NCBI GenBank assembly: GCA_963767925.1
Contig: CAVYGB010000010.1
Coordinates: 288,001-352,000, forward strand
Direction: 5' to 3'
DNA from: an uncultured delta proteobacterium
GTDB lineage: Bacteria > Myxococcota_A > Polyangia > Fen-1088
DNA length: 64,000 nt
Part shown: piece by piece, positions 9,526-46,155 of the stretch
Layout of the letters: each line of letters opens with the position of its first letter
Numbering within the stretch: the stretch's first letter is position 1
Position numbers and translations under genes: made by a program
The notes under the pieces: generated by a model
What the model saw: only the letters and a program-made list of their open reading frames with translations
What the model was told of the DNA's origin: nothing
The model's database searches: none

Positions 9526-9588
9526 GAACAGGCCGCGGGGCTCCGATATCCGCGCGACTCCCCCCGGATCGCCACTCGCTTGGCCGCG

Positions 9589-11747: not shown

Positions 11748-12964
11748 GCGGGGTCGAGCGCCGGGAGGACCACCTTGACGCTTTGGCCGCCCCCCTCCCC
11801 CGCCGCCACCTCGATGCTGCCGCCATAAGAGCCGAGGATGCTCCGGCAGATGGCCAGGCAGAGCGCCTTGTCGGTGCGAGGCTCGAGAGCCCAGGACGCT
11901 GCCTCGGCGGCGGCCGCGGCCGCCGCGGCGTAGGCCGGCACCGCGCTGGCTTCCGCCTGGGCGTCGACCTCCTCGACCAGCTCGACCACCGCCTTCTGAT
12001 CGGCGCCGTAGACGCTCACCCGGATCTGGCGCGCGGCGACCGGAGTGGGCTGGGCGGGCAAGGTCACGTTGACCAGCAGGCCCAGGAACACCTGGAGCAG
12101 GCGGGTCTCGTCGCCGCTGACCGGGGGGGGATCGCGGAAGTCGCACACCAGGCGGGCCCGCCGCCGGAGCTGGCCGCTCACCAGCCGGACGGCGGCCTCC
12201 AGCAGCGGCACCAGGGCGACCGCCGCGCGCCGCTCGGTGCGCGCGCGGGCCATCTTCCCCATCGCCTCGAGGATGTCGTAGATGCGATCAGCCCCGATGC
12301 GGGTGTCGTGGACCATGGCGCCCAGCTCGACGACCAGGTGCTCGACCTCGTCGCAGGTCCGTTGCACGACCGGATCCGGGCTGCTGCGCCGGGCGGCCTG
12401 CAGCACCGCCCGGATCTGGGGCGCCGTCTCGTCGGCGAGCTGGGTGTTCGTCACCAAGCAGGCCAGCGGGTTGCGCAGCTCGTGCTCGATGCTGGCGGTG
12501 AGGGCGCCCAGCAGGCCCAGGCGGTAGACGTTTTCGATCTCCTCGGCGGGCTTCCAGCAGCCGCGCTCGACGAGCACGCGATCGACGGTGTCGAGCAGGT
12601 CGGAGGCCCGCACCGGTTTGTGCAGGAAGGCGTCGGCGTGAATGGCGGAGGCCTTGGGGCTGCTGTCGGCGGAGATCGCGATGACGGGGATCTTGGCCAG
12701 CTCCGAGTCGGCCCGCTGGCGCGAGCGAAACTCCCAGCCGTCCATGCGGGGCAACATCAGATCGAGGATCATGAGGTCGGGCAGGGGCTCGCGGTGGATC
12801 AGCTCCCAGGCCTGGCCCCCGTCGCCGCAGGACTCGACCTCGTAGCCCTCGTCCTCGAGCAACATCTCGATCGACTCGCGCACGTCGGGGTCGTCGTCCA
12901 CCACCAGCACGCGGCCACGCGCCCGCCTGGGCTCACCAGGTTCCGGCAGCCGAGGCCCTTGCAC
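11723..12964 (-). CDS. Receiver-HisKA hybrid with a degenerate HATPase domain
   Basis: REC (VLVVDDD, LDLMLPRMDG, KP) and H-box IEHELRNPL; the ATP-binding boxes are eroded. Confidence 0.8.
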   Translation of the reverse strand: MQGPRLPEPGEPRRARGRVLVVDDDPDVRESIEMLLEDEGYEVESCGDGGQAWELIHREPLPDLMILDLMLPRMDGWEFRSRQRADSELAKIPVIAISADSSPKASAIHADAFLHKPVRASDLLDTVDRVLVERGCWKPAEEIENVYRLGLLGALTASIEHELRNPLACLVTNTQLADETAPQIRAVLQAARRSSPDPVVQRTCDEVEHLVVELGAMVHDTRIGADRIYDILEAMGKMARARTERRAAVALVPLLEAAVRLVSGQLRRRARLVCDFRDPPPVSGDETRLLQVFLGLLVNVTLPAQPTPVAARQIRVSVYGADQKAVVELVEEVDAQAEASAVPAYAAAAAAAAEAASWALEPRTDKALCLAICRSILGSYGGSIEVAAGEGGGQSVKVVLPALDPAHMPTMSR

Positions 12965-28118: not shown

Positions 28119-28469
28119 GCGGCACCGCCGGCCCGCTGACGGACCGGCGCGCGCGTCGTCGCCGGGAACGTTGGATATGTCGAGCGCCGCTGCGCGGGTC
28201 TCCGCGCGTCCGTGATCGAGGGCACGATGGTGTGCGCGGTTGTCGCGCAATATCGTCCTGTGGTTTCGCAGCCATAGCGTCAGGGCAGGCCACCCAGGCC
28301 GCCGGTTCGGGCCGCCCTTGCGAGCGGAATTGTCAAACCAACCGGGGGCTCACCGGGAATCGCTGGTGGACAAATACCCTCTAAGGGTTGTTAGCTACAC
28401 AGAGCGACGGCCATGTGCGCCTCAAGCAGGGCCGATACAACGCCTCCGTCACGAACAGAGGGCACCTCA

Positions 28470-31400: not shown

Positions 31401-34148
31401 TGCGGGGGAGGCTCCTGCAACGTGAGCTGCCCCGGGGGGCAGACCAACTGCGGGGGGACCTGCCGCAACCTCGGCAACGACGAGGCCAACTGCGGGGCCT
31501 GCGGGACCACCTGCGGCGCCAACCAGACCTGCTGTGGCGGGGCCTGCCGCAACCTCCAGAACGACGGGACCAACTGCGGCTCCTGCGGCACGAGCTGCGG
31601 CTCCAACCAGACCTGCCAGGGCGGCGCCTGCGTGATCAACTGCGGGCCCGGGCAGACCGCCTGCAGCGGCACCTGTCGCGACCTGCAGGACGACGAGGCC
31701 AACTGCGGGATGTGCGGCCGGGCCTGCGGGCCCAGCCAGTCCTGCTGCGGCGGCACCTGCCGCAACCTCAACAACGACGAGGCCAACTGTGGCGGCTGCG
31801 GGACCACCTGCTCCGGCACCCAGACCTGCATGGGGGGCACCTGCGTCGTCAACTGCCCGCCGGGGCAGACCAACTGCGGCGGCACCTGCCGCAGCTTGCA
31901 GGACGACGAGGCCAACTGCGGCTTCTGCGGCACCACCTGCGGGGGCAATCAGAGCTGCTGCGGCGGGGTCTGCCGCAACCTGCAGGAGGACGAGAACCAC
32001 TGCGGATCCTGCGGCACCGGCTGCGGGGCCAACCGGATCTGCATGGGCGGGTCCTGCATGGCCACCTGCCCGGCCGGCCAGACCGTGTGCAGCGGGGTCT
32101 GCCGCAACCTCGGCAACGACGAGGCCAACTGCGGGGCCTGCGGTACGGTCTGCCCGGCGGGCAAGGTCTGCACCGGTGGGAGCTGCGCCTGCCCGGGCAA
32201 CCAGACCGACTGCAACGGGGTCTGCCGCAACCTCAACAACGACGCCGCCAATTGCGGCACGTGTGGCAACGCCTGCGGCCAGGGTCGCACCTGCATGGGC
32301 GGGACCTGCTCCTGCCCGGGCAACCAGACCCTGTGTGGCGGCGTCTGCGCCAACCTGCAGAACGACGAGGCCAACTGCGGGATGTGTGGCAACGCCTGCG
32401 GCCAGGGCCAGACCTGCACCGGCGGGAGCTGCGCCTGCCCGGGCAACCAGACGAGCTGCAACGGCGTCTGCCGGAACCTCGCCAACGATCCCAACAACTG
32501 CGGCATGTGTGGCAACTCCTGCGGCATGGGTCGCACCTGCGCCGGCGGGGCCTGCTCTTGCCCGGGTAACCAGACCGACTGCGGGGGGACCTGCCGCAAC
32601 CTGCAGAACGACGAGGCCAACTGCGGCGCCTGCGGGAACGCCTGCGCGGCCGGCCAGGCCTGCAACGGCGGAGCCTGCGTGAGCCTGTGCCCGCCCGACC
32701 GGCAGTGCGGCGCCGCCTGCTGCGGCCCCAACCAGTCCTGCACCGGCGGCGCGTGTTGCCCGATGGCCCGGGCCTGCGGCAACCAGTGCTGCGCGGCCGG
32801 GGAGATGTGCCAGGGCGGCGCCTGCGTCCCCCAGTGCCCGATGCCCCGCCAGTGCGGGAGCCAGTGCTGCGCCCCGAACCAGATGTGTCAGGACGGCAAC
32901 TGCGTCGCCCAGTGCCCGGGACCGCGCCAGTGCGGCGCCCAGTGCTGCCCGCCCGGACAGACCTGCCAGGAAGGCGCCTGCGCCGTCCCCTGCCCGTCCG
33001 CCCGCCAGTGCGGCGATCAGTGCTGCGCAGCCAACCAGATGTGCCAGGACGGCGCCTGCGTCGCCCAGTGCCCGGCCCCGCGCCAGTGCGGCGCCGCCTG
33101 CTGCAACCCCAACCAGACCTGCACCGGCGGCGCGTGCTGCCCGATGGCCCGCGCGTGTGGCAACCAGTGCTGCGACCAGGGCCAGATGTGCCAGGACGGC
33201 GCCTGCGTCGCCCAGTGCCCGGGACCGCGCCAGTGCGGCGCCGCCTGCTGCCCGCCCGGGCAGACCTGCCAGGACGGCGCCTGCGCCGTCCCCTGCCCGC
33301 CCGCCCGTCGCTGCGGCGATCAGTGCTGCAACCCCGGCCAGATGTGCCAGGACGGCGCCTGCGTCGCCGCCTGCCCCATGCCCCGCCAGTGCGGCGCCCA
33401 GTGCTGTCCACCGGGCCAGACCTGCCAGGAAGGCGCCTGCGCCGTCCCCTGCCCGGGGCCACGCCAGTGTGGCGCCCAGTGCTGCCCGCCCGGGCAGACC
33501 TGCCAGGACGGCGCCTGCGCCGTCCCTTGCCCGCCCGCCCGTCGCTGCGACGACCAATGCTGCAACCAGGGTCAGATGTGTCAGGACGGCGCCTGCGTCG
33601 CCGCCTGCCCCATGCCCCGCCAGTGCGGCGCCCAGTGCTGCCCACCGGGTCAGACGTGCCAGGGTGGCGCCTGCGCCGCCCCTTGCCCGGGGCCGCGCCA
33701 GTGTGGCGCCCAGTGCTGTGACCAGGGCCAGATGTGCCAGGGTGGCGCCTGCGTCGCCGCCTGCCCGGTCCCCCGCCGCTGCGGCGATCAGTGCTGCGAC
33801 CAGGGCCAGATGTGCCAGGACGGCGGCTGCGTCGCCGCCTGCCCGGTCCCCCGCCGCTGCGGCGACCAGTGCTGCCCGCAAGGACAGACCTGCCAGGATG
33901 GGGCCTGCGCGGCTCCCTGCCCGGGGCCCCGCCAGTGCGGCGACACCTGCTGCCCGCAAGGACAGACCTGCCAGGACGGGGCCTGCGCCGCTCCCTGCCC
34001 GGGGCCCCGCCAGTGCGGCGACACCTGCTGCGACGCCGGCTCCCGCTGTGCCGGGGGGCAGTGTTGCCCCAACGGCCGGGCTTGCGGCGACCAGTGCTGC
34101 ATGCCCAAGCAGCAATGTGGCGAGGGCAACGTCTGCGTGACCATGTAG
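28470..34148 (+). CDS. Giant cysteine-rich repeat lipoprotein with STIG1-like repeats (~1,890 aa)
   Basis: Lipobox LSLSC. Three repeat zones: CxDGVCCxxAC units, CRNLxNDEANCGxCGxxC units, and ~22-aa CPxPRQCGxQCCxxGQxCQxGAC units. Confidence 0.85.
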   Translation: MSKVAGFARGLLAAAALLSLSCSTKAFNTKAVGTSAGADAGVRPPGGSTGENGDGKDPSAPLCPSEVASPKAVGQTCACDIECATGTCLGRVCCAGSACTPLSPLGAVCEDDAECQSSFCADGVCCNVACSGACVSCNQAEQMGECTPIPAGGEDIHNVCRRDSPDSCGQSGFCNGQGGCAKYAAGTTCQLASCEGGGKESFIPASLCDGEGTCINGSAISCSPSTCEGGACRSSCTSTADCMTPNSCVSGSCGPKGPGQDCTSNNQCASNFCVDGVCCESACNTPCTFCANPDARGKCVPVRAGSIDQRTARGERDPARACQDEGPTSCGNDGRCNGQGGCQKYREGTVCRDPRCDSAANTETRAGTCMGGSCRVPQPQTCGPYKGCSGSACRGSCGSDSQCVSPNVCISGDCGRKPTGAVCSRAAECMSNVCAQGRCCSAACGGTCKSCALPGREGTCSNVGAGGADPTGTCRDDACSNGCDGNGGCRREIAGTTCGGATCSGNARVTRTCNASGSCQTANFACGAGFTCNGGSCVAAPKQNGDPCVSAAECASNLCTNNVCCAGACGGACKECQRGTGACVNRVGGCGSGGTCMTGTCCQGGQTNCGGACRNLDSDEANCGRCGGACAPGLTCVNGACTLVCNPPERVCGGDCVDVTSDIRHCGDCNNPCPAGSTCTRGACTCSGGRTLCGNTCVDTGSTEAHCGGCNRPCGPGQLCVGGSCQATCNTVMCGATCCAPGQVCSSGRCCPAGQASCGGACRDLDEDEAFCGACNKRCGVGETCCGGTCKNLGNDAANCGTCGSACAMGQRCVAGDCSAICEGTPCGEQCCQGATPVCSDERCCPTGQANCGGACRNFNNDEANCGACGRACGAGQTCCSGVCRSLQSDESHCGTCGRACGANQSCEGGACNVNCPPGQTNCGGSCQNLQNDGSNCGMCGRACGANQTCCGGTCKSLETDPANCGMCGRTCGANQMCGGGSCNVSCPGGQTNCGGTCRNLGNDEANCGACGTTCGANQTCCGGACRNLQNDGTNCGSCGTSCGSNQTCQGGACVINCGPGQTACSGTCRDLQDDEANCGMCGRACGPSQSCCGGTCRNLNNDEANCGGCGTTCSGTQTCMGGTCVVNCPPGQTNCGGTCRSLQDDEANCGFCGTTCGGNQSCCGGVCRNLQEDENHCGSCGTGCGANRICMGGSCMATCPAGQTVCSGVCRNLGNDEANCGACGTVCPAGKVCTGGSCACPGNQTDCNGVCRNLNNDAANCGTCGNACGQGRTCMGGTCSCPGNQTLCGGVCANLQNDEANCGMCGNACGQGQTCTGGSCACPGNQTSCNGVCRNLANDPNNCGMCGNSCGMGRTCAGGACSCPGNQTDCGGTCRNLQNDEANCGACGNACAAGQACNGGACVSLCPPDRQCGAACCGPNQSCTGGACCPMARACGNQCCAAGEMCQGGACVPQCPMPRQCGSQCCAPNQMCQDGNCVAQCPGPRQCGAQCCPPGQTCQEGACAVPCPSARQCGDQCCAANQMCQDGACVAQCPAPRQCGAACCNPNQTCTGGACCPMARACGNQCCDQGQMCQDGACVAQCPGPRQCGAACCPPGQTCQDGACAVPCPPARRCGDQCCNPGQMCQDGACVAACPMPRQCGAQCCPPGQTCQEGACAVPCPGPRQCGAQCCPPGQTCQDGACAVPCPPARRCDDQCCNQGQMCQDGACVAACPMPRQCGAQCCPPGQTCQGGACAAPCPGPRQCGAQCCDQGQMCQGGACVAACPVPRRCGDQCCDQGQMCQDGGCVAACPVPRRCGDQCCPQGQTCQDGACAAPCPGPRQCGDTCCPQGQTCQDGACAAPCPGPRQCGDTCCDAGSRCAGGQCCPNGRACGDQCCMPKQQCGEGNVCVTM

Positions 34149-34165
34149 GGGGCGCCGGCCGCCAG

Positions 34166-35011
34166 ATGGAGTTCGTCAAGTACCACGCCCTGGGGAACGA
34201 CTACCTCGTCATCGCGCCGGGCGCGCCCGGCGGCGCGGCTCCCTCGGGCGATCGGATCCGGGCCATCTGCCACCGGAACTACGGGGTGGGCAGCGACGGG
34301 ATCTTGTGGGGCCCGCTGCCGGCCCCCAGCGGGTCGTTCGGCCTGCGCATCTTCAACCCCGACGGCAGCGAGGCGGAGAAGAGCGGCAACGGCGTGCGCA
34401 TCTTCTGCCGGTTCCTGTGGGACCGGGGCCAGGTGCGGGAGGAGCCCTTCACCGTGCTGACCCCCGGTGGGCCGGTGCGGGCGACCGCCCTCGACGGAGG
34501 GCGCTCCTTCCGGCTCGACATGGGGCGGGTGCGCTTCGGCAGCGAGGAGATCCCCCTGCGCGGCCAGCCCCACGAGGTGCTGAACGAGACCCTGGTTGCG
34601 GGCGACCGCACGTTCACCTTCTGCGCCGCCACCGTGGGCAACCCCCACTGCGTCGTGCTGCTGCCCGAGGTGGACGAGGCCCTGGCCCGCCGCTACGGCC
34701 CGCTCATCGAGCGCGACCCCCGCTTCCCCAACCGGACCAACGTCCAGTTCATGCGGGTCCGGGACCGAAACAACATCGAGATCGAGATCTGGGAGCGGGG
34801 GGCCGGCTACACCCTGGCCTCCGGCACCAGCGCCAGCGCCGCGGCCGGGGTGGCCCGGCGCCTGGGCCTCGTCGACGCCGACGTCCAGGTGCACGCGCCC
34901 GGCGGGGCGCTGGAGGTCAAGCTGGACGAGCAGTACCGGGTCGAGCTCACCGGTCCGGTGACCCGGGTGGCCTCCGGGGTGATCGATCCGGAGATCCTCG
35001 GGCCCGGCTGA
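34166..35011 (+). CDS. dapF: Diaminopimelate epimerase family protein (Ser-for-Cys active-site variant)
   Basis: KYHALGNDY, GVGSDG, IFNPDGSEAEKSGNG, VGNPHCV, FPNRTNVQF and WERGAGYTLASGT. Confidence 0.85.
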   Translation: MEFVKYHALGNDYLVIAPGAPGGAAPSGDRIRAICHRNYGVGSDGILWGPLPAPSGSFGLRIFNPDGSEAEKSGNGVRIFCRFLWDRGQVREEPFTVLTPGGPVRATALDGGRSFRLDMGRVRFGSEEIPLRGQPHEVLNETLVAGDRTFTFCAATVGNPHCVVLLPEVDEALARRYGPLIERDPRFPNRTNVQFMRVRDRNNIEIEIWERGAGYTLASGTSASAAAGVARRLGLVDADVQVHAPGGALEVKLDEQYRVELTGPVTRVASGVIDPEILGPG

Positions 35012-35117: not shown

Positions 35118-37019
35118 GTGAACGAGCCGGGGCTCACCCCCTTCGACTTTCACCTGCTGGCCGAGGGGACCCACGGCAACCTCCACGACAAGCTGGGCGC
35201 CCACCTCGTGGGAGAAGGTGACCGGGCCGGGACGCGCTTCGCGGTCTGGGCCCCCAACGCCGAGGCGGTGGAGGTTGTCGGGGACTTCAGCGGCTGGCGC
35301 ACGGGCGGGATCGCGCTCGAGCCGGTGGCGCTGACCGGCGTCTGGCAGGGGTTCGCCCCCGGCGTCGGCGCCGGGCAACGTTACAAGTACCGGATCCGCT
35401 CCCGGCACCGGGGCTACACGGTGGACAAGGCCGACCCCTTCGCCTTCGCCGCCGAGACGCCCCCCGCCACCGCCTCGGTGGTCTGGGCGCCCGACCACGT
35501 CTGGCAAGACGACGACTGGATGCGCATCCGACGGGCGCGCAACGCGCTGGACGCGCCCATCTCGATCTACGAGGTGCACCTCGGCTCCTGGATGCGCGAC
35601 CCGGAGCAGCCCGAGCGCTTCCTCGGCTACCGGGCCCTGGCTCCCCTGCTGGTGGACCATGTCCAGCGCACCGGCTTCACGCACGTCGAGCTGATGCCGG
35701 TGATGGAGCACCCGTTTTACGGCTCCTGGGGCTACCAGGTGACGTCGTTCTTCGCCCCCAGCGCCCGCTTCGGATCGCCCTCGGACTTCATGTTCCTGGT
35801 CGACACCCTCCACCGCAACGGCATCGGCGTGATCCTCGACTGGACCCCGGCCCACTTTCCCACCGACGAGCACGGGCTCATGTACTTCGACGGCACCCAC
35901 CTCTACGAACACGCCGACCCCCGCCAGGGCATTCACGCCCACTGGGGCAGCGCCCTGTTCAACTACGACCGCAACGAGGTGCGGAGCTTCCTCATCTCGA
36001 ACGCCAACTTCTGGCTCGAGCGCTACCACGCCGACGGGCTGCGGGTGGACGCCGTCGCCTCGATGCTCTACCTCGACTACGGCCGCAAGGAGGGCGAGTG
36101 GATCCCCAACCGCCACGGGGGCCGGGAGGACCTGGCGGCGGTGGACTTCTTGCGCACCTGCAACGAGTCCATCTACCGCGCCCACCCCGACGTGCACAGC
36201 ATGGCCGAGGAGTCGACCTCCTGGCCCATGGTGACCCGCCCGACCTATCTGGGAGGCCTCGGCTTCGGCATGAAGTGGGACATGGGCTGGATGCACGACA
36301 CGCTCGAATACGCCGCTATCGATCCCCTGTTTCGCCGGCACCACCACCACAAGCTCACCTTCCGGGGCATGTACGCCGCCTCGGAGAACTTCATCTTGCC
36401 GCTCTCGCACGACGAGGTGGTGCACGGCAAGGGTTCGCTCTCGACAAGATGCCGGGCGACACCTGGCAGAAGTTCGCCTCGCTGCGCCTGCTGTATTCCT
36501 ACATGTGGGCGGTGCCGGGCAAGAAGCTGCTGTTCATGGGGGGCGAGTTCGGCCAGTGGCGGGAGTGGAGCCACGAGCGCAGCCTGGACTGGCACCTGCT
36601 GCAGGAGTCGGCCCCGCACGGGCAGCTGCAGCAGCTGGTGCGCGAGCTCAACCGCCTGCTGCGGGCCGAGCCGAGCCTGCACGAGCTGGACTTCGATCGG
36701 GCCGGGTTCGAGTGGATCGCCGCCGATGACGTCGAGAACAGCGTCTACGCCTTCGTGCGCAAGGGGCGCGACCCCGACGCGTCCCTGGTGTGTGTCTTCA
36801 ACTTCACCCCCGTCCCGCGCTATCGACTACCACCTCGGCCTGCCCCGGGAAGGGACCTGGATCGAGGCGCTGAATAGCGACGCCGCGCCTTTTGGCGGCA
36901 GCAATTTGGGGAACCTGGGGGGTGTGACGGCGGCGGCTATTCCGTCCCACGGGCGTGCGTTCTCGGCCCGTCTGACGTTGCCGCCGCTGGCGGCGCTCTT
37001 CTTGAAGCACCGGGACTGA
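35118..37019 (+). CDS. glgB: 1,4-alpha-glucan branching enzyme, two compensating frameshifts (~36440, ~36823)
   Basis: [42 protein letters not shown] and [11 protein letters not shown]. The segment [20 protein letters not shown] sits in the alternative frame. Confidence 0.93.
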
Positions 37020-37045
37020 CGTTCACGTTCACGTGCTCCGTCAGA

Positions 37046-37178
<133 letters not shown>

Positions 37179-37256
37179 GACGTGAACGGAAGACGTGAAC
37201 GGAAGACGTGAACGGAAGACGTGATCGGAAGACGTGAACGGAAGACGTGATCGGAA
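37179..37256. repeat. 13-bp tandem repeat GACGTGA(A/T)CGGAA x6
   Basis: Read directly; abuts the hexamer run and has no spacers. Confidence 0.9.
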
Positions 37257-37366
37257 GACGTCAGACGTGCACGTCTCTCGTGCTCGTCGTCGTTCACGGG
37301 ACCCGTCAGACGTGCACGTCTCAGGTGCTCGTGCTCGTGCACGCAAGACGTGCACGGATTTCAGAC

Positions 37367-38038
37367 CTAAGGCCCGGCTTCGTACCCGTCGTGAAGCTTC
37401 ACCGTCAACGCGTCCCCGGGCTGGACCCCCTCGAACGCGTAGCTGGCTCGGCCCGCGCCCCGGATCGCCTGCAGGGGAGCCGATCCCAGCTTCACGTAGC
37501 CGTAGACCTGATCGCCGTCGGGATCGCTCACCTGGACGGTGACGACCACCTTGCCCATCTCCAGGGCGGGGGCCCCCTTGACCTCGTAGACCGGCTTGCG
37601 GTTGGGGCCCCGCTTGGCGCAGCTCGCGGCGCTGGCCATTGCCCAGCGATCGAGCACCGTCGCCTCGTACTCCGAGAGAGGGCTGGCCGGCGGCGGCGGC
37701 ATCCGCAGGATGTCCGGGGCGCCCGGGCCGGTCTGGATCGAGATGGCCCCAGCCGCCGAGGCGGCGCCCCCCACAACGGGGTTCCCCGCCGTGTCGGTGC
37801 CGAGGATCCAGAGCTTCTCGGCGGTGAAGGCGGCGTTGAACGGCGCCGAAGTGCAGATGTCGTAGCGGGTGGTCGGCGCGATCTCGCTGCCGGCCGTGGA
37901 CCCGTGGCAGTGGCTGCAGCTCCCGCGCAAGATGGGGTAGACGTCGAGGTCCCAGCTCGGGGTGGCGGGGGGCTCGGGCGCGCCGCAGGCGACCGAGCCG
38001 ATCGTCGCCAGACACACCGCCGCCATCGTCCGTCCCAT
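37367..38038 (-). CDS. Lipoprotein with a single CxxCH (putative c-type heme) motif
   Basis: MGRTMAAVCLATIGSVAC lipobox; PSWDLDVYPILRGSCSHCH and RMPP..LS..E...LDRW. Confidence 0.7.
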   Translation of the reverse strand: MGRTMAAVCLATIGSVACGAPEPPATPSWDLDVYPILRGSCSHCHGSTAGSEIAPTTRYDICTSAPFNAAFTAEKLWILGTDTAGNPVVGGAASAAGAISIQTGPGAPDILRMPPPPASPLSEYEATVLDRWAMASAASCAKRGPNRKPVYEVKGAPALEMGKVVVTVQVSDPDGDQVYGYVKLGSAPLQAIRGAGRASYAFEGVQPGDALTVKLHDGYEAGP

Positions 38039-38433
38039 CTTCACCCCCTGGTAAGTAAAGCAGACGGTCAGGTCCGGGGCAAAGCCCCCGGGCTGACCAG
38101 GGTGCCCCCCGGCTGGCCGGGTTGAAAGATCGGGCCGACCGAGCGTCTCTACAGATGGGAGCCGGGAGGAGGGGGGGGCAGCGGATGTCAGGCGGCGCGG
38201 AAGCAAAGATGCTGGAGCGACGCTGCCCATCCGGTCTCCACTCGGCGGACGATTTCCAGGGCAGACCCCGGCAATAGAGACGTCACGACGTTGTCCGGCG
38301 AGCGACGGGTTGCACCTGTGGCCCGCCGGAGATCGAGGAGAAGCAGCCGATCGCCGCGGAGACGGGCCGGGGGGCCTCTTCGGCGCACGGCTGTGCCAAG
38401 CGCCGCGCGAGCGGCAGAACAAGGAGAACGCGT

Positions 38434-38589
38434 ATGGAGAGCAATGTGGCCGTGTTTCCGATGGAGTCCGCCGTTCAGGCCTTCGAGTCCGCGGTGCAGC
38501 CGTTCGAGTCGGCCGTGCAGCCGCTCGAGTCCGCGGTGCAGCCGTTCGAGTCGGCCGTGCAGCCGTTCGAATCGGCGGTGCGCGGATAG
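38434..38589 (+). CDS. Putative repeat-cassette RiPP precursor peptide, 51 aa (MESNVAVFPMESAVQAFESAVQPFESAVQPLESAVQPFESAVQPFESAVRG)
   Basis: RBS AAGGAGA at 38421, ATG 38434, TAG 38587-38589. Much of the variation between the 21-nt repeats is synonymous in this frame (TCC/TCG, GCC/GCG, GTT/GTG, GAG/GAA). It is the first gene of the YcaO operon. Confidence 0.85.
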   Translation: MESNVAVFPMESAVQAFESAVQPFESAVQPLESAVQPFESAVQPFESAVRG

Positions 38590-38624
38590 GCCCGAAGATC
38601 GTTCGGCGTAAGCGTTGTTGAAAG

Positions 38625-38664
38625 GCGGGAGGAGGTGGCCGGCACCTCGACCACCTCCTCCCGC
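38625..38664 (+). promoter_or_regulatory. Perfect 14-bp stem-loop between the precursor and the modification genes
   Basis: GCGGGAGGAGGTGG-N12-CCACCTCCTCCCGC with no U-tract. Confidence 0.7.
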
Positions 38665-38683
38665 TCGTGAAGGGAACACGACG

Positions 38684-39484
38684 ATGACCAGCACGGCCCA
38701 GTACTTCGATGCCCGCGCCACACGCTACGACGAGGAGTTCTCCGACGGCAGCGTCTGGAGCATCGCCCATCGGATCGCCTGGCGGCTGGTCCAGCCCCAC
38801 CTGCCGCGCGGGCGGGCCCTCGAGGTCCTCGACGCCGGCTGCGGTACCGGCAAGTGGGGCCGGCCCTTCTCGGCGGAGGGGCAGGCCGTCACCTACAGCG
38901 ATCTGTCCCCGAAGATGGTGGAGCAGGCGCTGGCCCTGGCCCGCGCGGCCAACCCGCGGGCCCCCAGCGAGGGGGCCACCCTCTCGGTCGACGCGCTCGA
39001 TGGGCTGCCCGACGCCCGCTTCGACCTCGCCCTGTGCATGGGCGATCCCCTCTCGTACGCCGCGGACCCACCGCGCGGGATCCGCGAGCTGACCCGGGTC
39101 ACCCGGTCGGGCGGCCTCATCCTGGTCAGCGTCGACAGCCGCCTCGGCTACCTGCGGGTGTTCAAGGAGCGCGACGGCTACGACCTCGATGCCCTGGCCC
39201 GCTTCCTCGAGACCGGAGATCTGCCCCGCTCCTGGGAGGGGTTGCCCCTGCACGCCTTCACCCCGGAGGAGCTACGGCGCGCGTTCGATCGAGCCGGGGC
39301 GGACACCGTCGCGGTCTGGTCGCTCCCCACCGTCTCGGCATACTTCCTCTTCGATCCGGCCTTCCGCGCCCGCCTGACCGATCCCGGCTTCGTCGACCGC
39401 CTGGTCGAGCTGGAGCTGGGGGCCCTGGGGCTGGGAGGCGCGCCGGGCACCCACCATCTGTATGGGGTCTTTCGACGGCGATGA
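38684..39484 (+). CDS. Class I SAM-dependent methyltransferase
   Basis: VLDAGCGTG, DLSPKMV, RFDLALC and RVTRSGG. Confidence 0.9.
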   Translation: MTSTAQYFDARATRYDEEFSDGSVWSIAHRIAWRLVQPHLPRGRALEVLDAGCGTGKWGRPFSAEGQAVTYSDLSPKMVEQALALARAANPRAPSEGATLSVDALDGLPDARFDLALCMGDPLSYAADPPRGIRELTRVTRSGGLILVSVDSRLGYLRVFKERDGYDLDALARFLETGDLPRSWEGLPLHAFTPEELRRAFDRAGADTVAVWSLPTVSAYFLFDPAFRARLTDPGFVDRLVELELGALGLGGAPGTHHLYGVFRRR

Positions 39485-40335
39485 GCGCGAACCCTGCCAC
39501 CAGACCAGGCGCGCCGATCGACCCGCCCCCCGCGCGGGAGGTCCCCGAAACACGCGCCTTCCCCACCTCCGACGCTTCCCCCGCCCCCCTTGCCTTCCTC
39601 GACTTCCTGGGCGCGGTCCGGACCGTGCGCCACTTCGCGCCGGAGCCCGTTCCCCAGGCGGTGATCGATCGGGCCATCGCCGCCGGCCAGCGCGCCCCGA
39701 GCGCCTCGAACAACCAGCTCTATTCGGTCATCCAGATCGACGATCCCGCCCTGCGCACGTGCATCGCCGACGCCATGGTGACCCAGGACTTCGTGCGGGC
39801 GGCGCCGACCTGGCTCATGGTCTGCGTCGACTGGAGCCGCCAGGACGCGGTGGGGCGCACGCTGGGCCTCCGCACGAAGCTCAACCGCGAGGCCCGGCGC
39901 TTCACCGGGATCGTCGACGCCAGCATCTTCGCCCACCACCTCGGGCTGGCGCTGATGGCCCAGGGGATCGGGTCCTGCCTCATCGCCAGCCCCTGGACCG
40001 CGCTCCGCAAGCTGGCGCGCCTGCTGGCCATTCCCGAGCGCTCGGCCATGCCGCTGCACCTGCTCATCGCCGGTTTCCCCGCCGAGCAGCCGGCCGCCCG
40101 GCCCCGCTACCCGGCCGCCATGATCGTCAGCCAGGACCGCTTCCGGGCGCCCGACCCGGCGGAGGTGGCCCGCTACCTCGACGAGGGCGACCGGCTGCTG
40201 CGGGGCCAGGGCTACTTCGCCTCGGCCGACACCGGCGTCCACTCCTGGCACGAGCTTTACCGCGTGCGCTACAGCGGGGTCGCGCGGCGCCGCACCTGGA
40301 CCCCCCTGCGGAGGGACCTTGCGCGCTTCCTGTGA
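39481..40335 (+). CDS. Nitroreductase-family flavoprotein (NfsA/FRP-like)
   Basis: RTVRHF, RAPSASNNQ, VDASI..H..LA...QGIGSC and GFPAEQP..RPRYP; ATGA overlap with the methyltransferase. Confidence 0.85.
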   Translation: MSANPATRPGAPIDPPPAREVPETRAFPTSDASPAPLAFLDFLGAVRTVRHFAPEPVPQAVIDRAIAAGQRAPSASNNQLYSVIQIDDPALRTCIADAMVTQDFVRAAPTWLMVCVDWSRQDAVGRTLGLRTKLNREARRFTGIVDASIFAHHLGLALMAQGIGSCLIASPWTALRKLARLLAIPERSAMPLHLLIAGFPAEQPAARPRYPAAMIVSQDRFRAPDPAEVARYLDEGDRLLRGQGYFASADTGVHSWHELYRVRYSGVARRRTWTPLRRDLARFL

Positions 40336-42541
40336 CCGCCTGCTGCGCACGGTGGATGCGGCCTGGCTGGGAGCAACCAGCTACGGCCTGTTTGCCGCCG
40401 ACGGCGCGTCGGTGCGGCGCTGGGTTGTCGCGGGGACGCCGCAGGAGCGGGCCCGCTGGTGTGCCCTCTTCCGGCGGGGCATCTCGATCGCCGACCTGCT
40501 GCTCCTCGAGCCGCGCTGGCGGCGCCGGGACATGCGGGCCTTGCTGCGGAGCTGGCTGCACAGCGGCTGGCTCGACGGAGCCGTCCTTCCGGCCGAGCCG
40601 GCCGATGGGGGTGCGGGGTCCGCGCCGGCGGGGGAGCCGGCGCCGGCGCCGGGCGGGGTGATCACCTTCGGCGACGCGCCCGCGCTCCGCCTGCTGCTGC
40701 CGGGGACCAGCCACCGGCCGCGCCAGGGAGGATCCACCGCCTGGATGCGGTCCCTGCTCGCGGCGGCTGCCCCGCGGCTGGTGATCTACGACGCGCAGGC
40801 GATGCAGTGGTCGGGGCTCTCGGTGTTGCACCGGCAGGTGGTCGGGCGGGTCGACCTCCTCGCGCTGTTCCGGCTGGGCGGCTGCTTCGCCGCGGTCGCC
40901 CTCCCCGCCGGATCGGAGGCCTGCCTGGGCTGCGCCGAGCGCTGGCTGATCGGCTCGTCCCCCTTCCCCCGGGAGATCGGCGCCTGGCTGCAGGGGCTGA
41001 TCACCGAGGCCACCGGACAGGTCGAGCCGCTGCCGCTGCCCTGGGCGCGCGAGCTGGCCGACCTCGCCGCGGGCCTGGGGCACGGGCAAGCAGGGACCGC
41101 CAGCGTCACGGTGGCGACCAGCGGCGAGCCGCCGCAGCGGGCGCGCCTGCGGCAGCACCCCTCCTGCCCCGGCCGCCATCGCCCGCCCCCCCTGCCGGCG
41201 CGACCCGGGTCGGCGGCACCGGCGGCGGTAGCGCCGCTGCCGGCGGTGCCGCCGCGCGCGCCAGGCGAGGAGCGCACGTCGGGGGTGCTCGCGCGGTGTC
41301 TGTCCGAGCTGGCCGGGCCGGCCGGGCTGTTCCGCGGCCTGCAGGTGGAGGACGTCGGCGAGCCCGGCGGCCCGAGCTACTACTTCGCCCGGGCGGCGTT
41401 CAACACCGGCTTTCGCACCCACCACGGCGACCCGGTCCACTGCTTCGGCGACGGCGAGGACGCCGCGCTGGCCTCGCTCCGCTGCGCCGCCGAGTGCCTC
41501 GAGCGCTTCTGCACTTTCCACTTCGACAGCCGGTCCTGGCGCCGGGCCACCTGGGCGGAGCTCGGCGACCACGCCGTCGCCCCGCCGAGCCTGACGCTCT
41601 ACTCGGAGGCGCAATATCAGACGCAGGGCTTCCCCTTCCCCCGGTTCGATCCCCACCGCCCGGGCGACTGGCTGCGCGGGCACGCGCTGGCCAGCGGGCG
41701 CGAGGTGTGGGTGCCGGCCGAGCTGGTCTTCGTCGGCTACTCGGCGCCGGCCGCCCTGACCATCGAGACCTCGGCCGGCGCCGCCACCCAGCAGAGCTTC
41801 GAGGCCGCCGCCGCCGCCGGCCTGCTCGAGGTGCTCGAGCGCGACGCCCTGGCCGTCACCTTCCTCGCCGGGCACGCCCCGCCGCGCCTGTCCCTCCCCG
41901 CCGAAGGCGAGACGAGCGACCGGGTGCGGCTCATGCGCGACAGCGGCTACCAGGTCGTCGCGCTCGACCTGACCCTCGATCTGGAGATCTCCGTCGTCCT
42001 GGTGCTGGCGCTGCGGCCCGGCGGCCCGGGTCCGCTCCTCCTCAAGGGCGCCGGCTCGTCCTTCCGGCGCGAGCGCGCCCTGGCTCAGGCCATGCGGGAG
42101 CTGTGGCGCAGCTTCCTCTACTATCGCCGGCACCCCGAGGCGGCGACCGTCGCCCGCAGCGCCCACCCCTGGAGCCTCGAATATGGGCTGGCCTACTACC
42201 AGCGCCCGGAGGCCCTCGCGACCCTCCGCTTCCTCCTGCAGGGGCCAGAGGCCCCGGCGAGCGCGAGCACCGCCGAGCCCGACACGCTCCCGCGGCTGGT
42301 CGAAGCCTGCGCCCGGGCCCAGCTCGAGCCCATCGCCGTCGACTGCACCCTGCCGATGCTGCGCGAGGTCGGCCTGCACTGCGTGCGGGTGCTGGTGCCG
42401 GGCCTGCAACCGCTCAGCGTGGGCGAGGCGCCCTGGCGCCTGGGTGGACAGCGGGTGCTCGACCTGCCCCGGCGGCTCGGGTGGCGCGACAGGCCCTTGA
42501 CCGAGGGGGAGCTCCACCGCGCTCCGCACTTTTTCACATGA
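40319..42541 (+). CDS. YcaO-family enzyme with N-terminal putative RRE and E1/ThiF-like region
   Basis: YcaO ATP/Mg motifs AECLER, TSAGAA and LLEVLERDA, plus VWVPAELVF, VRVLVPGLQP and C-terminal PHFFT. N-terminal ACLGC and HPSCP resemble fused TOMM cyclodehydratases. The start codon is uncertain. Confidence 0.88.
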   Translation: MRASCDRLLRTVDAAWLGATSYGLFAADGASVRRWVVAGTPQERARWCALFRRGISIADLLLLEPRWRRRDMRALLRSWLHSGWLDGAVLPAEPADGGAGSAPAGEPAPAPGGVITFGDAPALRLLLPGTSHRPRQGGSTAWMRSLLAAAAPRLVIYDAQAMQWSGLSVLHRQVVGRVDLLALFRLGGCFAAVALPAGSEACLGCAERWLIGSSPFPREIGAWLQGLITEATGQVEPLPLPWARELADLAAGLGHGQAGTASVTVATSGEPPQRARLRQHPSCPGRHRPPPLPARPGSAAPAAVAPLPAVPPRAPGEERTSGVLARCLSELAGPAGLFRGLQVEDVGEPGGPSYYFARAAFNTGFRTHHGDPVHCFGDGEDAALASLRCAAECLERFCTFHFDSRSWRRATWAELGDHAVAPPSLTLYSEAQYQTQGFPFPRFDPHRPGDWLRGHALASGREVWVPAELVFVGYSAPAALTIETSAGAATQQSFEAAAAAGLLEVLERDALAVTFLAGHAPPRLSLPAEGETSDRVRLMRDSGYQVVALDLTLDLEISVVLVLALRPGGPGPLLLKGAGSSFRRERALAQAMRELWRSFLYYRRHPEAATVARSAHPWSLEYGLAYYQRPEALATLRFLLQGPEAPASASTAEPDTLPRLVEACARAQLEPIAVDCTLPMLREVGLHCVRVLVPGLQPLSVGEAPWRLGGQRVLDLPRRLGWRDRPLTEGELHRAPHFFT

Positions 42542-43806
42542 GCGGCGCGGTCGACAGCCTCCTGCCCGGGTCGCCGGCGGTGCCGGGACCGGCGGCGCGG
42601 CCTGGCCCGACCGCCGGCGCGCTCGCCCCCCTGCCGGCGCGGGCCGCGGACCACGGGCGCGGGCTGCGGCTGCGGGCCTGGCGCGAGAAGTTCCACCGCC
42701 TCCCGGGCCGGTCGGGGCAGGAGGCCGAGACCGAGGCGGCCATCCTCGGCGAGCTGGCCGGGCTCGGGCTTCCCTTTCACCTCGAGGGCCGGCGCCCGGG
42801 GCTGGTGGTCACCCTCGCCGGGAGCGACGGCCCGACCCTCACCGTGAGGGCGCCCATCGACGCCCTCCCCGTCCAGGAGGAGACCGGACTGGCCTGCGCC
42901 TCCACGGTCCCCGGCGTGATGCACGCCTGTGGCCACGACGCCAACATCGCCGTTCAGCTCGAGCTGGCCCGGGCCTTCGCCGCCGACCCGCCCGCCCGGG
43001 GCCACCTGCGGCTCCTGTTCCAGCCCGAGGAGGAGACCCTCACCGGTGCCCGCCACATGCTCGACAGCGGCACCCTGGCGCTGGGTCCCCAGGACGCCCT
43101 GTGCAGCTTTCACCTCAGCCCATCGCTGCCGCTCGGGCGGGTGGGGCTGGCCGAGCCGGTCGCCCTGGCGTCGGTGGACGACTTCACCCTCGAGCTGACC
43201 GGGGGGGGCGGCCACGCCGGCTCGCCCCAGGCGGCGTCCGACCCGATCCTCGCGGCCAGCGAGCTGATCGGCCGCCTGCCCGGGCTGATCCGCCGCCGCC
43301 TCGATCCCCGCGACGTCGTCACCTGGACCATCGGCCGGCTCGAGGCGGGCACCGTCCGCAACGTTGTGGCGCCGCGCGCCCGGCTGGAGGGCACCCTCCG
43401 CTACTTCGAGGAGGCCGCCGCCGCCGCGGTCCGGGCGGCGCTGATCGGCGAGCTGCAGGCGGTGGCCGTGGCCCACGGCCTGGGGGCCGCTCACCAGTTC
43501 CGGACGGTGGTCCCCTCGCTGCGCAACGATCCGGCGCTGGGCGGCCTCTTCCTCGAGACCGCCGCGGCCCGCCTGGGGGCCGCGCAGGTCGATCGCCTGC
43601 GGCCCTCGCTGGCCGCCGACGACGCCGCGTACCTGCACGACCGGGCGCCCGGCGTCTACTGGCTGGTCGGCTGCGCCGCTCCGGAGGGCCCCACCCCACC
43701 ACTGCACAGCAGCCGCTTCGACTTTCCCGAGCCGACGCTGGAGATCGCCTTCGAGCTGCTGCGCGACTTCACCGACCGCTTCTTTGCAAGGAGAGCCCAC
43801 CCATGA
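42538..43806 (+). CDS. M20 (ACY1/hippuricase-like) amidohydrolase
   Basis: RAPIDALP, MHACGHD, LFQPEEE, GGGGHAG.P and LHSSRFD; ATGA overlap with the YcaO gene. Confidence 0.9.
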   Translation: MSGAVDSLLPGSPAVPGPAARPGPTAGALAPLPARAADHGRGLRLRAWREKFHRLPGRSGQEAETEAAILGELAGLGLPFHLEGRRPGLVVTLAGSDGPTLTVRAPIDALPVQEETGLACASTVPGVMHACGHDANIAVQLELARAFAADPPARGHLRLLFQPEEETLTGARHMLDSGTLALGPQDALCSFHLSPSLPLGRVGLAEPVALASVDDFTLELTGGGGHAGSPQAASDPILAASELIGRLPGLIRRRLDPRDVVTWTIGRLEAGTVRNVVAPRARLEGTLRYFEEAAAAAVRAALIGELQAVAVAHGLGAAHQFRTVVPSLRNDPALGGLFLETAAARLGAAQVDRLRPSLAADDAAYLHDRAPGVYWLVGCAAPEGPTPPLHSSRFDFPEPTLEIAFELLRDFTDRFFARRAHP

Positions 43807-44690
43807 CCCGCATTCTCGATGGCTGCTTCGTTGCCCTCGCCACCCCGTTCCGGGGCGGCGCCTTCGACGCCGACACCTACCGCCTCCACTGCGAGGCGGT
43901 CCTCGCCGGCGGGGTCGACGGCCTGGTCCCCTGCGGCACCACCGGAGAGGCCCCCACCTTGACCCGGGAGGAGTGGGCCGAGAACGTCCGCATCGCCGTG
44001 CGCGCCGCCGCCGGCAAGCCGGTCATCGCCGGCGCCGGGGCCTACGCCACCGCCGAGGCCATCGAGCTGGTGACCGTCGCCCGGGAGCTCGGCGCGCAGG
44101 CCGCCCTGGTTGTCACGCCCTACTACAACCGGCCCTCCCAGGACGGGCTGGTCGCTCACTTCGCCGCCATCGCCCGGGCCGTGCCCGGCTTTCCCCTGGT
44201 CGCCTACAACGTGCCCTTCCGGACGGGGATCGATCTGCTGGCCGCCAGCTACCCGAAGCTGGCCGAGGTCCGCGAGGTGGTGGCGGTCAAGGAGGCCACC
44301 AGCAACATGGCCCGGGTCACCGAGATCCGACAGCTCGTCGGCGAGCGGTTCGCGCTGCTGGCGGGCGACGACCTCACCATGTTGCCTTTCCTGGCGGCGG
44401 GGGGCCAGGGGGTCATCAGCGTCTCGGCCAACCTGGCGCCCCGGAAGGTGAGCGCCCTCATCCAGGCCGCGCGCGCCGGCGACTACCGCGCCGCCGGCGC
44501 CCTCAACGACGAGCTGGCGCCCCTGCACCTGGCCCTCGCCGAGGGCAACCCGGTGCCGGTCAAGGCGGCGCTGCACCTGCTGGGCCGCTTCGCCGACGAG
44601 CTGCGCCTGCCCCTGCTGCCGGCCGGCCCCGCGACCCGCGACCGCCTGGCCCGGGCCCTGGCCCGGCTGAACCTGACCCCGAAACAGTGA
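43803..44690 (+). CDS. dapA: 4-hydroxy-tetrahydrodipicolinate synthase
   Basis: ALATPF, GTTGE, TPYYNRP, YNVPFRTG, Schiff-base KEA, GDD and NPVPVK; ATGA overlap. Confidence 0.88.
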   Translation: MTRILDGCFVALATPFRGGAFDADTYRLHCEAVLAGGVDGLVPCGTTGEAPTLTREEWAENVRIAVRAAAGKPVIAGAGAYATAEAIELVTVARELGAQAALVVTPYYNRPSQDGLVAHFAAIARAVPGFPLVAYNVPFRTGIDLLAASYPKLAEVREVVAVKEATSNMARVTEIRQLVGERFALLAGDDLTMLPFLAAGGQGVISVSANLAPRKVSALIQAARAGDYRAAGALNDELAPLHLALAEGNPVPVKAALHLLGRFADELRLPLLPAGPATRDRLARALARLNLTPKQ

Positions 44691-44703: not shown

Positions 44704-46155
44704 ATGCGCACCTGGCATGGGCTCCCCGAGAGCGACGACCGCTTCGTGACCGACTACTTGCGGGTCACCGACGCCTTCTACGAAGGGCGGATGACCGACG
44801 CCGACTGGCGGGCCTGGTACGACCAGCGGCTCGCGGTGGTGCTTCGCCACGTCACCGCCCGTTCGGCCTTCTACCAGCGGCACTTCGCCGGGATCGACGT
44901 CGGCTCGATCGACCTGACCTCGCTGGCCCGCCTCCCCTTCACCACCAAGGACGACCTGCAGGCGGCCCGCTACGACATCCTGAGCGGCAGCATCCGCGAC
45001 GCCCAGTTCTTCTACGCCACCACCGGCACCACCGGGCCCTCCACCCCCTGCCCCCGCGACAAGAAGGACCTGTTCACAACGAACCATCAGATCGCCATGG
45101 GCATGCGGCGGATCCTGGAGGCCCACCTCCCCGGGCAAAAGCCCCTGCTGGCGGTGATGGCCCCCAACGAGCTGCACTCCATCTGCAACACCTTCGCCTC
45201 GGTCGCCTTCGAGCTGGGCATCTGCAAGCTCGATCCTTACCCCGCCTCCCTGGTGATCGGCTTCGAGAAGTGCGTGAAGCTGCTGCAGGAGCTGCAGGTC
45301 GAGATCGTGCTGGGCACGCCCGGGCTGGCCCTCATCCTGGCCCAGATCTGCGAGATGTACGGCCTCGATCCCAGACGCGACCTGGCCCTCAAGCTGTTCT
45401 TCTCCACCGGCGAGATCTGCACCCCCGCCATGGAGCGCAACATCGAGCGCATCTACGGCTGCAAGGTCTACAACTTCATCTACGCCTCGCAGGAGTCGGC
45501 CACCATGGCCCTGGCCTCGCCGGCCAACACCTATTACCCCACCCTGCCGAACTACATCTTCGAGGTCGTCGACCCGGACGGCAGCGCGTCTTACGGGCTC
45601 ACCGGGACCGGCGAGCTGTGCGTGACGATGCTGGTCGACGGGATCAAGCCCCTCATCCGTTACCGCACCGGCGACCTCGTCACAATCCGGGAGGAGGCCG
45701 GGGCGACCGGCCCCTACCGCCACAGCCTGCAGGTGCTCGGCCGGCGCAAGGACACCGTCGCCCTCGGCGGCCGCCCGGTGGCCGCCCGCGAGCTCGAGCA
45801 GCTCATCATGGAGGAGGTGCACTCCTGCCTCGGCTACCAGATCGTGATCGCCAGCGCGGGCGGGGCCGACACCCTGGAGGTCAAGCTGCAGGTCCAGCAC
45901 GGGGCCGACGTCTACAAGGACGAGGTGCGGGCGCGCCTGGCGGCCAAGCTGGCCCAGCGGCTGGGGGTGGCGAGCACCGTCAGCTTCGTCCTGCAGCTCG
46001 ACGACATCGTGAACACGGGCGGCTGGATCAGCTGGAAGGCGGCCCGGGTTGTCGACCGGCGCCAGGACAGCGACAAGCGCACCGCCGAGGCGATGGCCCT
46101 GGAAAAACACATGGCGCGCCACCTGGCCAGCGGCGCCGATCCGCTGGTCCTTTGA
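44704..46155 (+). CDS. Phenylacetate-CoA ligase (PaaK)/F390 synthetase-like adenylate-forming enzyme
   Basis: LPFTTKDDL, P-loop TTGTTG, TGE, YASQE, RYRTGD and LGRRKD. Confidence 0.85.
   Translation: MRTWHGLPESDDRFVTDYLRVTDAFYEGRMTDADWRAWYDQRLAVVLRHVTARSAFYQRHFAGIDVGSIDLTSLARLPFTTKDDLQAARYDILSGSIRDAQFFYATTGTTGPSTPCPRDKKDLFTTNHQIAMGMRRILEAHLPGQKPLLAVMAPNELHSICNTFASVAFELGICKLDPYPASLVIGFEKCVKLLQELQVEIVLGTPGLALILAQICEMYGLDPRRDLALKLFFSTGEICTPAMERNIERIYGCKVYNFIYASQESATMALASPANTYYPTLPNYIFEVVDPDGSASYGLTGTGELCVTMLVDGIKPLIRYRTGDLVTIREEAGATGPYRHSLQVLGRRKDTVALGGRPVAARELEQLIMEEVHSCLGYQIVIASAGGADTLEVKLQVQHGADVYKDEVRARLAAKLAQRLGVASTVSFVLQLDDIVNTGGWISWKAARVVDRRQDSDKRTAEAMALEKHMARHLASGADPLVL

Follow-up and report, generated by a model that had tools for sequence, protein, structure and literature searches.

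To our knowledge, nearly all known fused-type YcaO cyclodehydratases are steered by a leader peptide, and those we know of depend on this leader being bound by an N-terminal recognition domain. Extensively repeating precursors are rare, according to PMC6511847, where the thiovarsolin VarA family ranges from non-repeating members to members with five repeats. That a fused YcaO can also use ATP to cleave a peptide backbone has been reported for MusD of the muscoride pathway (review PMC10885120). Here we analyse a 64,000-nucleotide stretch of DNA from an uncultured delta proteobacterium (GenBank assembly GCA_963767925.1, contig CAVYGB010000010.1, positions 288,001 to 352,000 of the forward strand; hereafter the window), in which a 51-codon open reading frame (ORF; 38434–38589, + strand) made of short E-S-A-V repeat units heads an operon for a methyltransferase, a flavoprotein and a fused YcaO protein. 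We regard as moderately probable, taken as a whole, the statement that this ORF encodes a leaderless multi-core precursor in which azolines would be formed at Ser by a rare clade of fused YcaO enzymes.

The ORF follows a Shine–Dalgarno-like AAGGAGA (38421–38427, +, read directly from the sequence) located 6 nt 5′ of its ATG, and translates as MESNVAVFPMESAVQAFESAVQPFESAVQPLESAVQPFESAVQPFESAVRG followed by a stop. The peptide is laid out as MESNVAVFP-MESAVQA-FESAVQP-FESAVQP-LESAVQP-FESAVQP-FESAVRG, that is, 9 residues and six 7-residue units of the form x-E-S-A-V-x-x, or MESNVAVFP plus six copies of (M/F/L)ESAV(QA/QP/RG), encoded by six in-register 21-bp repeat units (38461–38586, +). This agrees, residue for residue, with the translation in the initial annotation, which had described a hidden repeat ORF behind the AAGGAGA element. 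Tandem Repeats Finder places the array at 38464–38581 with a period of 21 (5.6 copies, 85% matches, score 159) and also with a period of 42 (2.8 copies, 89% matches, score 187). The ATG at 38434 is the first ATG, GTG or TTG downstream of the preceding in-frame stop; hence there is no longer canonical ORF able to hold a leader. The G+C content at third codon positions (GC3) is 0.84 over the stop-to-stop frame that encloses the ORF (38278–38589).

When the six units are set in register, 11 of the 21 columns vary, and 7 of these 11 are third codon positions. Within the E-S-A-V columns, 4 of 12 are variable, and all four are third-position, synonymous changes (GAG/GAA, TCC/TCG, GCC/GCG, GTT/GTG), which bears out the earlier claim that ESAV is kept through synonymous variation. 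At the protein level, the units differ only at residue 1 (M/F/L) and, in the first and the last of them, at their final two residues. Units 3 and 5 have the same sequence, and a single base separates unit 2 from unit 4. Since the array has a 42-bp super-period and some units are recent copies, the independent synonymous events within ESAV number only about 4–5, not dozens; taken by itself, the synonymous pattern is suggestive of coding without being decisive. The repeat DNA has a single match in the 9.3-Mb genome, namely itself, and of the 127,996 positions in the six-frame translation of the window, 7 match E-S-A-[VI], six of them inside the precursor ORF. The precursor matches no precursor family in Pfam or NCBIfam; a sub-threshold NCBIfam match to XseB (22.2 bits against a cut-off of 94) was set aside as compositional. 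A search of a collection of 5.8 billion protein clusters, covering lengths of 28–90 residues among which a 25-residue peptide such as that described below could not appear, gave 505 word-sharing candidates and no homologue at E ≤ 0.01 or E ≤ 10.

The sole relative with DNA for comparison lies on a contig of an Actinomycetota metagenome-assembled genome (locus L007; P0005 in the protein searches below). There, a 25-residue ORF (8194–8271, same orientation as the downstream genes) starts 8 nt after an AGGAGG and reads MSAAVL-TESAVRP-MESAIL-MESAVL, with the stop directly after the last unit. Its three x-E-S-A-[VI] units lie in the same frame as those of the window and encode their Ser residues by TCC, AGC and TCC; the degenerate first unit of the window precursor (MESNV) encodes Ser by AGC. 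Going from TCC to AGC takes at least two substitutions, and this switch therefore speaks for selection acting on the amino acid and not on a motif in the DNA. The small ORF is followed by genes for a methyltransferase (8298–9104; 54% identical to that of the window, 144/267), a nitroreductase (9101–9901, GTGA overlap; 48% identical, 117/244) and a YcaO protein (9902–11974, directly abutting the nitroreductase gene; 38% identical). The order peptide, methyltransferase, nitroreductase, YcaO is thus common to both loci, with overlapping or abutting junctions at each. The initial annotation had staked its coding interpretation in advance on homologous repeats preserving the frame, and the L007 ORF is found in the same place, orientation and frame behind its own ribosome-binding site (RBS).

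Shared between the two precursors is only the string hydrophobic-E-S-A-[VI]. The window precursor has six perfect units and one degenerate unit, against three units in L007; unit lengths are 7 against 7, 6 and 6; and the residues ahead of the first perfect unit number 9 (themselves a degenerate unit) against 6. It is this variation in copy number (7 versus 3) and unit length (7 versus 6–7), with only a short motif kept, that leads us to read the peptide as a series of cores. The earlier claim that there is no conventional leader is strengthened by the comparison, as L007 has only MSAAVL ahead of its first unit. The proposal of cleavage after Pro, in contrast, is not supported, Pro not being a conserved feature: it follows 4 of the 6 window units and just 1 of the 3 in L007, being missing from MESAIL and MESAVL, and the unit lengths differ. 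We also scanned both whole genomes for a degenerate pattern of two ESAV-type units 2–3 codons apart. All five matches in the window's genome fall inside the precursor ORF, so that the genome-wide scattering named in the initial annotation as a refuting result is not seen there; two of the three matches in the L007 genome fall in the small ORF, and the third, ETAV...ETAV, lies on a different contig. With the pattern reversed as a control, neither genome had a match.

These comparisons also bear on the idea that the 21-bp array is a non-coding tandem repeat, such as iterons or a slippage-prone satellite, with a frame that is accidental in GC-rich DNA. Other tandem repeats do lie 1.2 kb upstream (37046–37261), five of the six frames are open across the array in this window of 72% G+C, and the core GAGTCCGCGGT is identical in L007 at the DNA level too. 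Yet an RBS, a start and a stop frame the array precisely at both loci, the amino-acid motif is kept although the period is 21 bp in one and 18–21 bp in the other, and the Ser codons switch between AGC and TCC while all variable sites within ESAV are synonymous. We therefore consider an accidental frame extremely improbable, and think it likely that the ORF is a real coding precursor belonging to the methyltransferase, flavoprotein and YcaO module.

Between the precursor stop and the methyltransferase start lies a 17-pair (15 + 2) GC-rich hairpin without a U tail (38624–38665, +; arms GGCGGGAGGAGGUGG...CCACCUCCUCCCGCU). The folding energy of the 105-nt stretch is −49.1 kcal/mol (z = −3.4), a stability reached by 0 of 200 shuffles. 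The hairpin may stabilise the precursor transcript or attenuate read-through. An Rfam search of 36900–38800 returned sub-threshold matches only, on the hairpin (Chloroflexi-1 at 24.4 bits against a gathering threshold of 80, and microRNA models), none of which was retained, and a scan of 37900–38800 found no sigma-70-like promoter. Together with an ORF rich in few codons, a structure of this stability in this position would fit a regulatory upstream ORF or attenuation leader, in which the small ORF tunes the operon with the hairpin and is no enzyme substrate. However, the hairpin lacks a U tail and has no counterpart in L007, whose ORF and methyltransferase gene are separated by 26 nt; the two loci share a four-residue peptide motif whose Ser changes codon family, rather than repeats of a single regulatory codon. 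A purely regulatory ORF is, in our estimate, highly improbable.

Seven + strand genes lie 3′ of the precursor, with starts and stops that overlap or nearly abut, and from the methyltransferase through the last gene they form a translationally coupled operon headed by the precursor. That a YcaO gene adjoins the repeat, as the initial annotation had stated, is thereby confirmed within one and the same operon. By Pfam and NCBIfam, from which all family assignments were taken, the first gene (38684–39484, +) encodes a class I S-adenosylmethionine (SAM) methyltransferase of 266 aa (Pfam Methyltransf_25, E 1.9e-15; closest solved chain 2avn, E 9e-15). The second (39481–40335, +; PF00881, E 4e-17) encodes a nitroreductase-fold flavoprotein and forms an ATGA overlap with the methyltransferase stop. 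The third (40319–42541, +; PF02624, E 6e-61), with a 17-base overlap with the nitroreductase gene, encodes a 740-aa fusion of an N-terminal region, an E1-like domain and a YcaO cyclodehydratase.

The fused YcaO protein passes TIGR03604, the SagD-type model of thiazole/oxazole-modified microcin (TOMM) systems (242.5 bits, curated cut-off 219.25), and PF02624 (206.9 bits, cut-off 25.7). At the profile level, TruD is matched from the CxxC motif to the C-terminus at E 8.6e-38, and matches to cyanobactin heterocyclases lie between E 1e-33 and 9e-38 at sequence identities of about 17–22%. We obtained an AlphaFold2 model from an 8-sequence alignment (mean predicted local distance difference test score, pLDDT, of 77.3), for which the top Foldseek ranks were LynD, TruD and MusD (E 1e-32 to 1e-24). 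Over model residues 105–740, VIA-align placed LynD, MusD and TruD at Z 32–35: LynD (4v1u_B) at Z 35.4, with a root-mean-square deviation (rmsd) of 4.4 Å over 544 residues, MusD at Z 34.5 with an rmsd of 4.4 over 545 residues, and TruD at Z 33.3. The C-terminal half aligns with stand-alone YcaOs and McbD at Z 28–29 (McbD 28.9), and residues 110–290 align with E1, ThiF, MoeB, MccB and McbB at Z of about 9.4–10.8 (McbB 10.1). The motifs AECxER and LLEVxERD, which we take to be the Mg/ATP-binding motifs of YcaO enzymes, are conserved in the clade and align with their TruD and LynD counterparts. C202, C205, H280 and C283 (CxxC...HPSC) are invariant in 8 of 8 clade members and align with CxxC...CPxC of TruD; by sequence and model alike, the protein carries a predicted E1-like domain with a Cys-rich Zn site. 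In the full-length model, residues 8–88 form four strands, three helices and a strand (pLDDT of about 60–84), so that the order of elements in the first ~100 residues resembles, as modelled, that of a winged-helix peptide-recognition (RRE) domain; rigid alignments to LynD begin at residue 105. The YcaO–peptide complex, predicted with no controls, scored 0.00 where the mark is 0.32, a result that does not bear on binding in either direction. Two more YcaO-domain genes are found in the window's genome, on contig C2 (1950005–1950967, − strand, 283.9 bits; 534656–535612, − strand, 223.7 bits), with no ESAV pattern close by.

The clade to which the fused protein belongs proved sparsely populated. 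A complete HMMER search of 1.84 billion cluster representatives gave 5,917 YcaO relatives at E ≤ 1e-3, among which only P0003 (63–65% identity) and P0004, P0005, P0007 and P0008 (34–39%) have matches that begin within the first 25 residues; those of P0006 and P0009 begin near residue 150. Of these 7 clade proteins, P0003 is the one above 40% identity, and a word-indexed search with the YcaO protein returned only the query itself and P0003, which comes from a JGI contig. Scans of metagenomes found no relative, and an initial scan of a genome collection found no match. A genome-collection scan with a 4-row alignment gave three loci, with L007 as the sole full-length relative; the other two, archaeal and matching in the YcaO domain only at 26–28% identity, were discarded. 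Among the genomes of 41 relatives, 4, the window's own included, have any match to the YcaO protein, the best foreign one at 33% and in the YcaO domain only, and a genome of the same genus (86% complete) has none. A methyltransferase profile found no orthologue in 401 genomes of the window's phylum, nor in 113 genomes of the L007 class and 401 of the L007 phylum. The three next-best methyltransferase loci were rejected, at 96–111 bits against 534–550 for true members, and tblastn found no YcaO or nitroreductase homologue within 14 kb of them. A search of plasmids for the module was without a match. The genomes searched for the module are samples, and the counts speak for these samples rather than for absence beyond them; on these sequence searches, the YcaO clade is rare and uncharacterised.

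The flavoprotein is nearest to NADPH flavin reductases of the NfsA/Frp type (NCBIfam 98.5 bits; PDB 1f5v, E 3.6e-19). It has no match to a SagB-type model in NCBIfam at E ≤ 0.01, where NfsA, BluB, FbiB and others are listed, and no McbC chain is found among its 24 PDB matches (NfsA, Frp, NfrA). It may nonetheless oxidise azolines. An NfsA/Frp-like rather than SagB-like flavoprotein would suit a system in which the peptide is still the substrate while the YcaO chemistry is non-azoline, comprising ATP-dependent cleavage between units, amidine formation or another backbone activation, with the flavoprotein acting as a reductase. One of the best structural matches, MusD (Z 34.5), uses ATP-dependent activation of the backbone to hydrolyse a C-terminal recognition sequence (review PMC10885120). 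Set against this, the YcaO protein passes the azoline-forming SagD-type model, every unit has an invariant Ser beside an invariant Glu, and the operon genes scanned include no TfuA gene; we hold non-azoline chemistry to be very unlikely.

For the leaderless multi-core reading that we prefer, we envision the following sequence of events. The ORF would be translated from its own RBS. In each hydrophobic-E-S-A-[V/I] unit, the YcaO fusion would use ATP to activate the backbone amide between Glu and Ser, and the Ser Oγ would close the oxazoline. The flavoprotein would then probably oxidise the oxazoline to an oxazole, and the methyltransferase would add a methyl group at some site. Finally, the units would be freed by the coupled M20 amidohydrolase in the window, or by housekeeping peptidases; the translational coupling of the M20 peptidase gene to the YcaO gene is counted in favor of such a release. 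Because the precursor is a string of cores, one translation product could give several copies of a short modified unit, and the repeat itself may be the recognition element for an enzyme class that is otherwise leader-dependent. We infer all of these points, namely translation of the precursor, Ser as the modified residue, azol(in)e chemistry, unit excision and the role of the methyltransferase, the first three steps and the last one from family membership; the ORF with its RBS and repeat, the conservation of motif, frame and gene order in L007, and the domains and folds of the enzymes are what the analysis shows.

Several observations weigh against this scheme. The precursor is without a leader although the enzyme class is leader-dependent, and the recognition domain is only putative: folded alone, the YcaO N-terminal domain reached a pLDDT of 53, and its fold search stayed at chance level with no match at E ≤ 0.001. 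With one Ser per 6–7 residues and no Cys or Thr, the units make a sparse TOMM core. The NfsA/Frp-like character of the flavoprotein, with no SagB match, leaves the oxidation step weakly founded. The ORF itself is not listed in the 5.8-billion-cluster protein collection, and the conservation of motif, frame and gene order rests on n = 2 loci. In addition, the M20 gene of L007, located 1.9 kb downstream of its YcaO gene, is only 26% identical (E 3e-4) to that of the window and is non-orthologous, so that unit excision is left without a conserved enzyme.

This last point touches on a further alternative, in which the same precursor and enzymes would yield one intact linear azol(in)e peptide, with neither a leader taken off nor units cut out. 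In the window, this product would have ~51 residues and up to 7 oxazol(in)es; in L007, it would have 25 residues and 3 such rings. The two loci share no conserved protease, the four-gene module of L007 ends at a convergent cytochrome P450 gene, and methyltransferases that decorate full-length linear azole peptides are known, plantazolicin being an example (PMC4603692). A two-fold difference in length and unit number with only a short motif kept would, however, be unusual for one folded or target-binding entity, and in the window a peptidase gene overlaps the YcaO stop; a product kept intact appears unlikely to us.

The remaining operon genes lie downstream of the YcaO gene on the + strand. An M20 amidohydrolase/carboxypeptidase-like gene (42538–43806) forms an ATGA overlap with the YcaO stop, and a gene for an aldolase of the dihydrodipicolinate synthase (DHDPS) family (43803–44690) forms another with the M20 stop. 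After a 13-base gap follows a PaaK-like adenylate-forming ligase (44704–46155), and the operon closes with a NAD_binding_4/thioester-reductase-like short-chain dehydrogenase/reductase (SDR) starting at 46152 (TTG) or 46182 (ATG) and ending at 47387, with a 4-base overlap if the TTG is the start (Pfam and NCBIfam throughout). The DHDPS gene passes the dapA model with 269.3 bits, whereas a dapA elsewhere on the same contig scores 363.6, which makes the operon copy a dapA paralogue. At E ≤ 1e-30, none of 25 relatives, the same-genus genome among them, has a match to the ligase; the downstream genes thus appear to be accessory too, not a conserved housekeeping block. The L007 operon, in turn, stops after the YcaO gene at the convergent P450 gene; given this end and the poorly matching M20 gene, the conserved module comprises four genes. 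The flanks of L007 (2556–7976 and 11978–18541) encode an ATP-grasp L-amino-acid ligase, a FemAB-like protein, a major facilitator superfamily (MFS) transporter, a flavin mononucleotide (FMN)-dependent dehydrogenase, a free-standing carrier protein, a P450, a class IV aminotransferase, an M20 peptidase, an adenylating enzyme and a thioesterase, and its four-gene module may therefore lie within a hybrid cluster.

A bolder version of the preferred scheme would extend it to these downstream genes and treat the precursor as a leaderless ‘cassette tape’ that is cut into many identical Glu-Ser-derived oxazole blocks for small-molecule enzymes. The M20 enzyme would free the unit, the PaaK-like ligase and the SDR would together convert a carboxylate, which the invariant Glu might supply, to an aldehyde, and the second DHDPS paralogue would condense this aldehyde with pyruvate. 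We consider this extension distinctly unlikely; if true, it would amount to a ribosomal-peptide-to-small-molecule hybrid pathway with recognition via a repeat and not a leader, and units feeding the downstream aldehyde-forming and aldolase enzymes would be a new way of making small molecules from ribosomal peptides. A repeat-only natural substrate, should the multi-core reading hold, would provide a minimal system for leader-independent or repeat-encoded recognition, and its short unit of 6–7 residues would be a readily engineered substrate. The precursor is invisible to gene callers, which shows how clusters of this kind come to be annotated without a substrate.

Upstream, a 395-bp divergent intergenic region separates the precursor from a seemingly unannotated 223-codon gene on the − strand (37367–38038; GC3 0.93) with a lipoprotein-type signal peptide (MGRTMAAVCLATIGSVAC...) that ends in ...GSVAC; an ORF overlapping it in another frame matched no family in a Pfam scan. 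Beyond it, tandem arrays occupy 37046–37261 between convergent genes, just past the stop of a glgB-like gene (37019). They consist of (ACGAGC) × 22.2 with 100% matches and, next to it, a 13-mer (AGACGTGAACGGA) × 6.5 with 95% matches, and more imperfect copies continue up to ~37340. Upstream of glgB and outside the operon, 33734–35011 (+) encodes a 425-residue protein with two DAP_epimerase stretches in Pfam, the best at residues 298–411; a typical DapF is shorter than 425 residues. Farther upstream, four consecutive − strand ORFs (28391–32887; 410, 341, 406 and 313 codons, GC3 0.90–0.97) match no Pfam family, and a 1,911-codon open frame on the + strand (28413–34148) that shadows them looks like a GC-rich artefact.

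How, then, does the locus compare with the systems described so far? With TOMM and linear azol(in)e systems it shares a SagD-type YcaO above the family cut-offs and an E1-like fusion with a Cys-rich Zn site, whereas two of their usual features, a leader peptide and a SagB/McbC-type FMN dehydrogenase, fail in the window. Microcin B17 McbBCD combines, in principle, the same E1-like scaffold, YcaO and nitroreductase-fold flavoprotein, but as separate subunits rather than a fusion and with a McbC-type instead of an NfsA-like flavoprotein; its precursor McbA, with a leader and Gly/Ser/Cys-rich cores, is unlike that of the window. The three-part fusion of N-terminal, E1-like and YcaO regions is that of the cyanobactin enzymes LynD and TruD (PatD type), and PatE-type precursors likewise carry several cores on one precursor, as also noted in PMC6511847. 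In contrast to cyanobactins, the window has no PatE-type long leader or core-flanking recognition sequences, the units abut, the flavoprotein is free-standing and NfsA-like, and the hosts are not cyanobacteria. No PatA/PatG-type protease or macrocyclase was matched by Pfam in 11 + 16 window proteins or in 15 proteins of L007, and assignment to the cyanobactins was rejected for want of these proteases and of a PatE-type precursor. MusD (PDB 7u58), a top-ranking structural relative at Z 34.5, is ~18% identical to the fused YcaO protein; the muscoride precursor has both a leader and a C-terminal recognition sequence, and no prenyltransferase is found by Pfam among the window operon genes. Streptamidine precursors are not repetitive, the word ‘repeat’ having 0 occurrences in PMC8442711.

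On the precursor side, a likeness is offered by thiovarsolin VarA, which is a short precursor of imperfect tandem core repeats whose number varies between clusters, with very short products cut from each repeat without a dedicated cluster protease, and whose clusters stand beside ATP-grasp and nonribosomal peptide synthetase (NRPS)-type genes, as does L007 (PMC6511847 for the thiovarsolin features). VarA has a predicted leader (PMC6511847), and thiovarsolin clusters use a stand-alone YcaO with TfuA to make a thioamide, whereas the window precursor has no leader and its YcaO is E1-fused and SagD-type. No TfuA domain was matched among the window operon genes or the L007 neighbours scanned, and the system was on this ground not classed as thiovarsolin-type. 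ESAV motif strings, or a leaderless repeat precursor for a fused YcaO, were not found in the literature searched, which excluded subscription-only sources. Heterocyclisation by fused YcaO enzymes and repeating cores are both known; what sets this locus apart would be a leaderless, repeat-only substrate.

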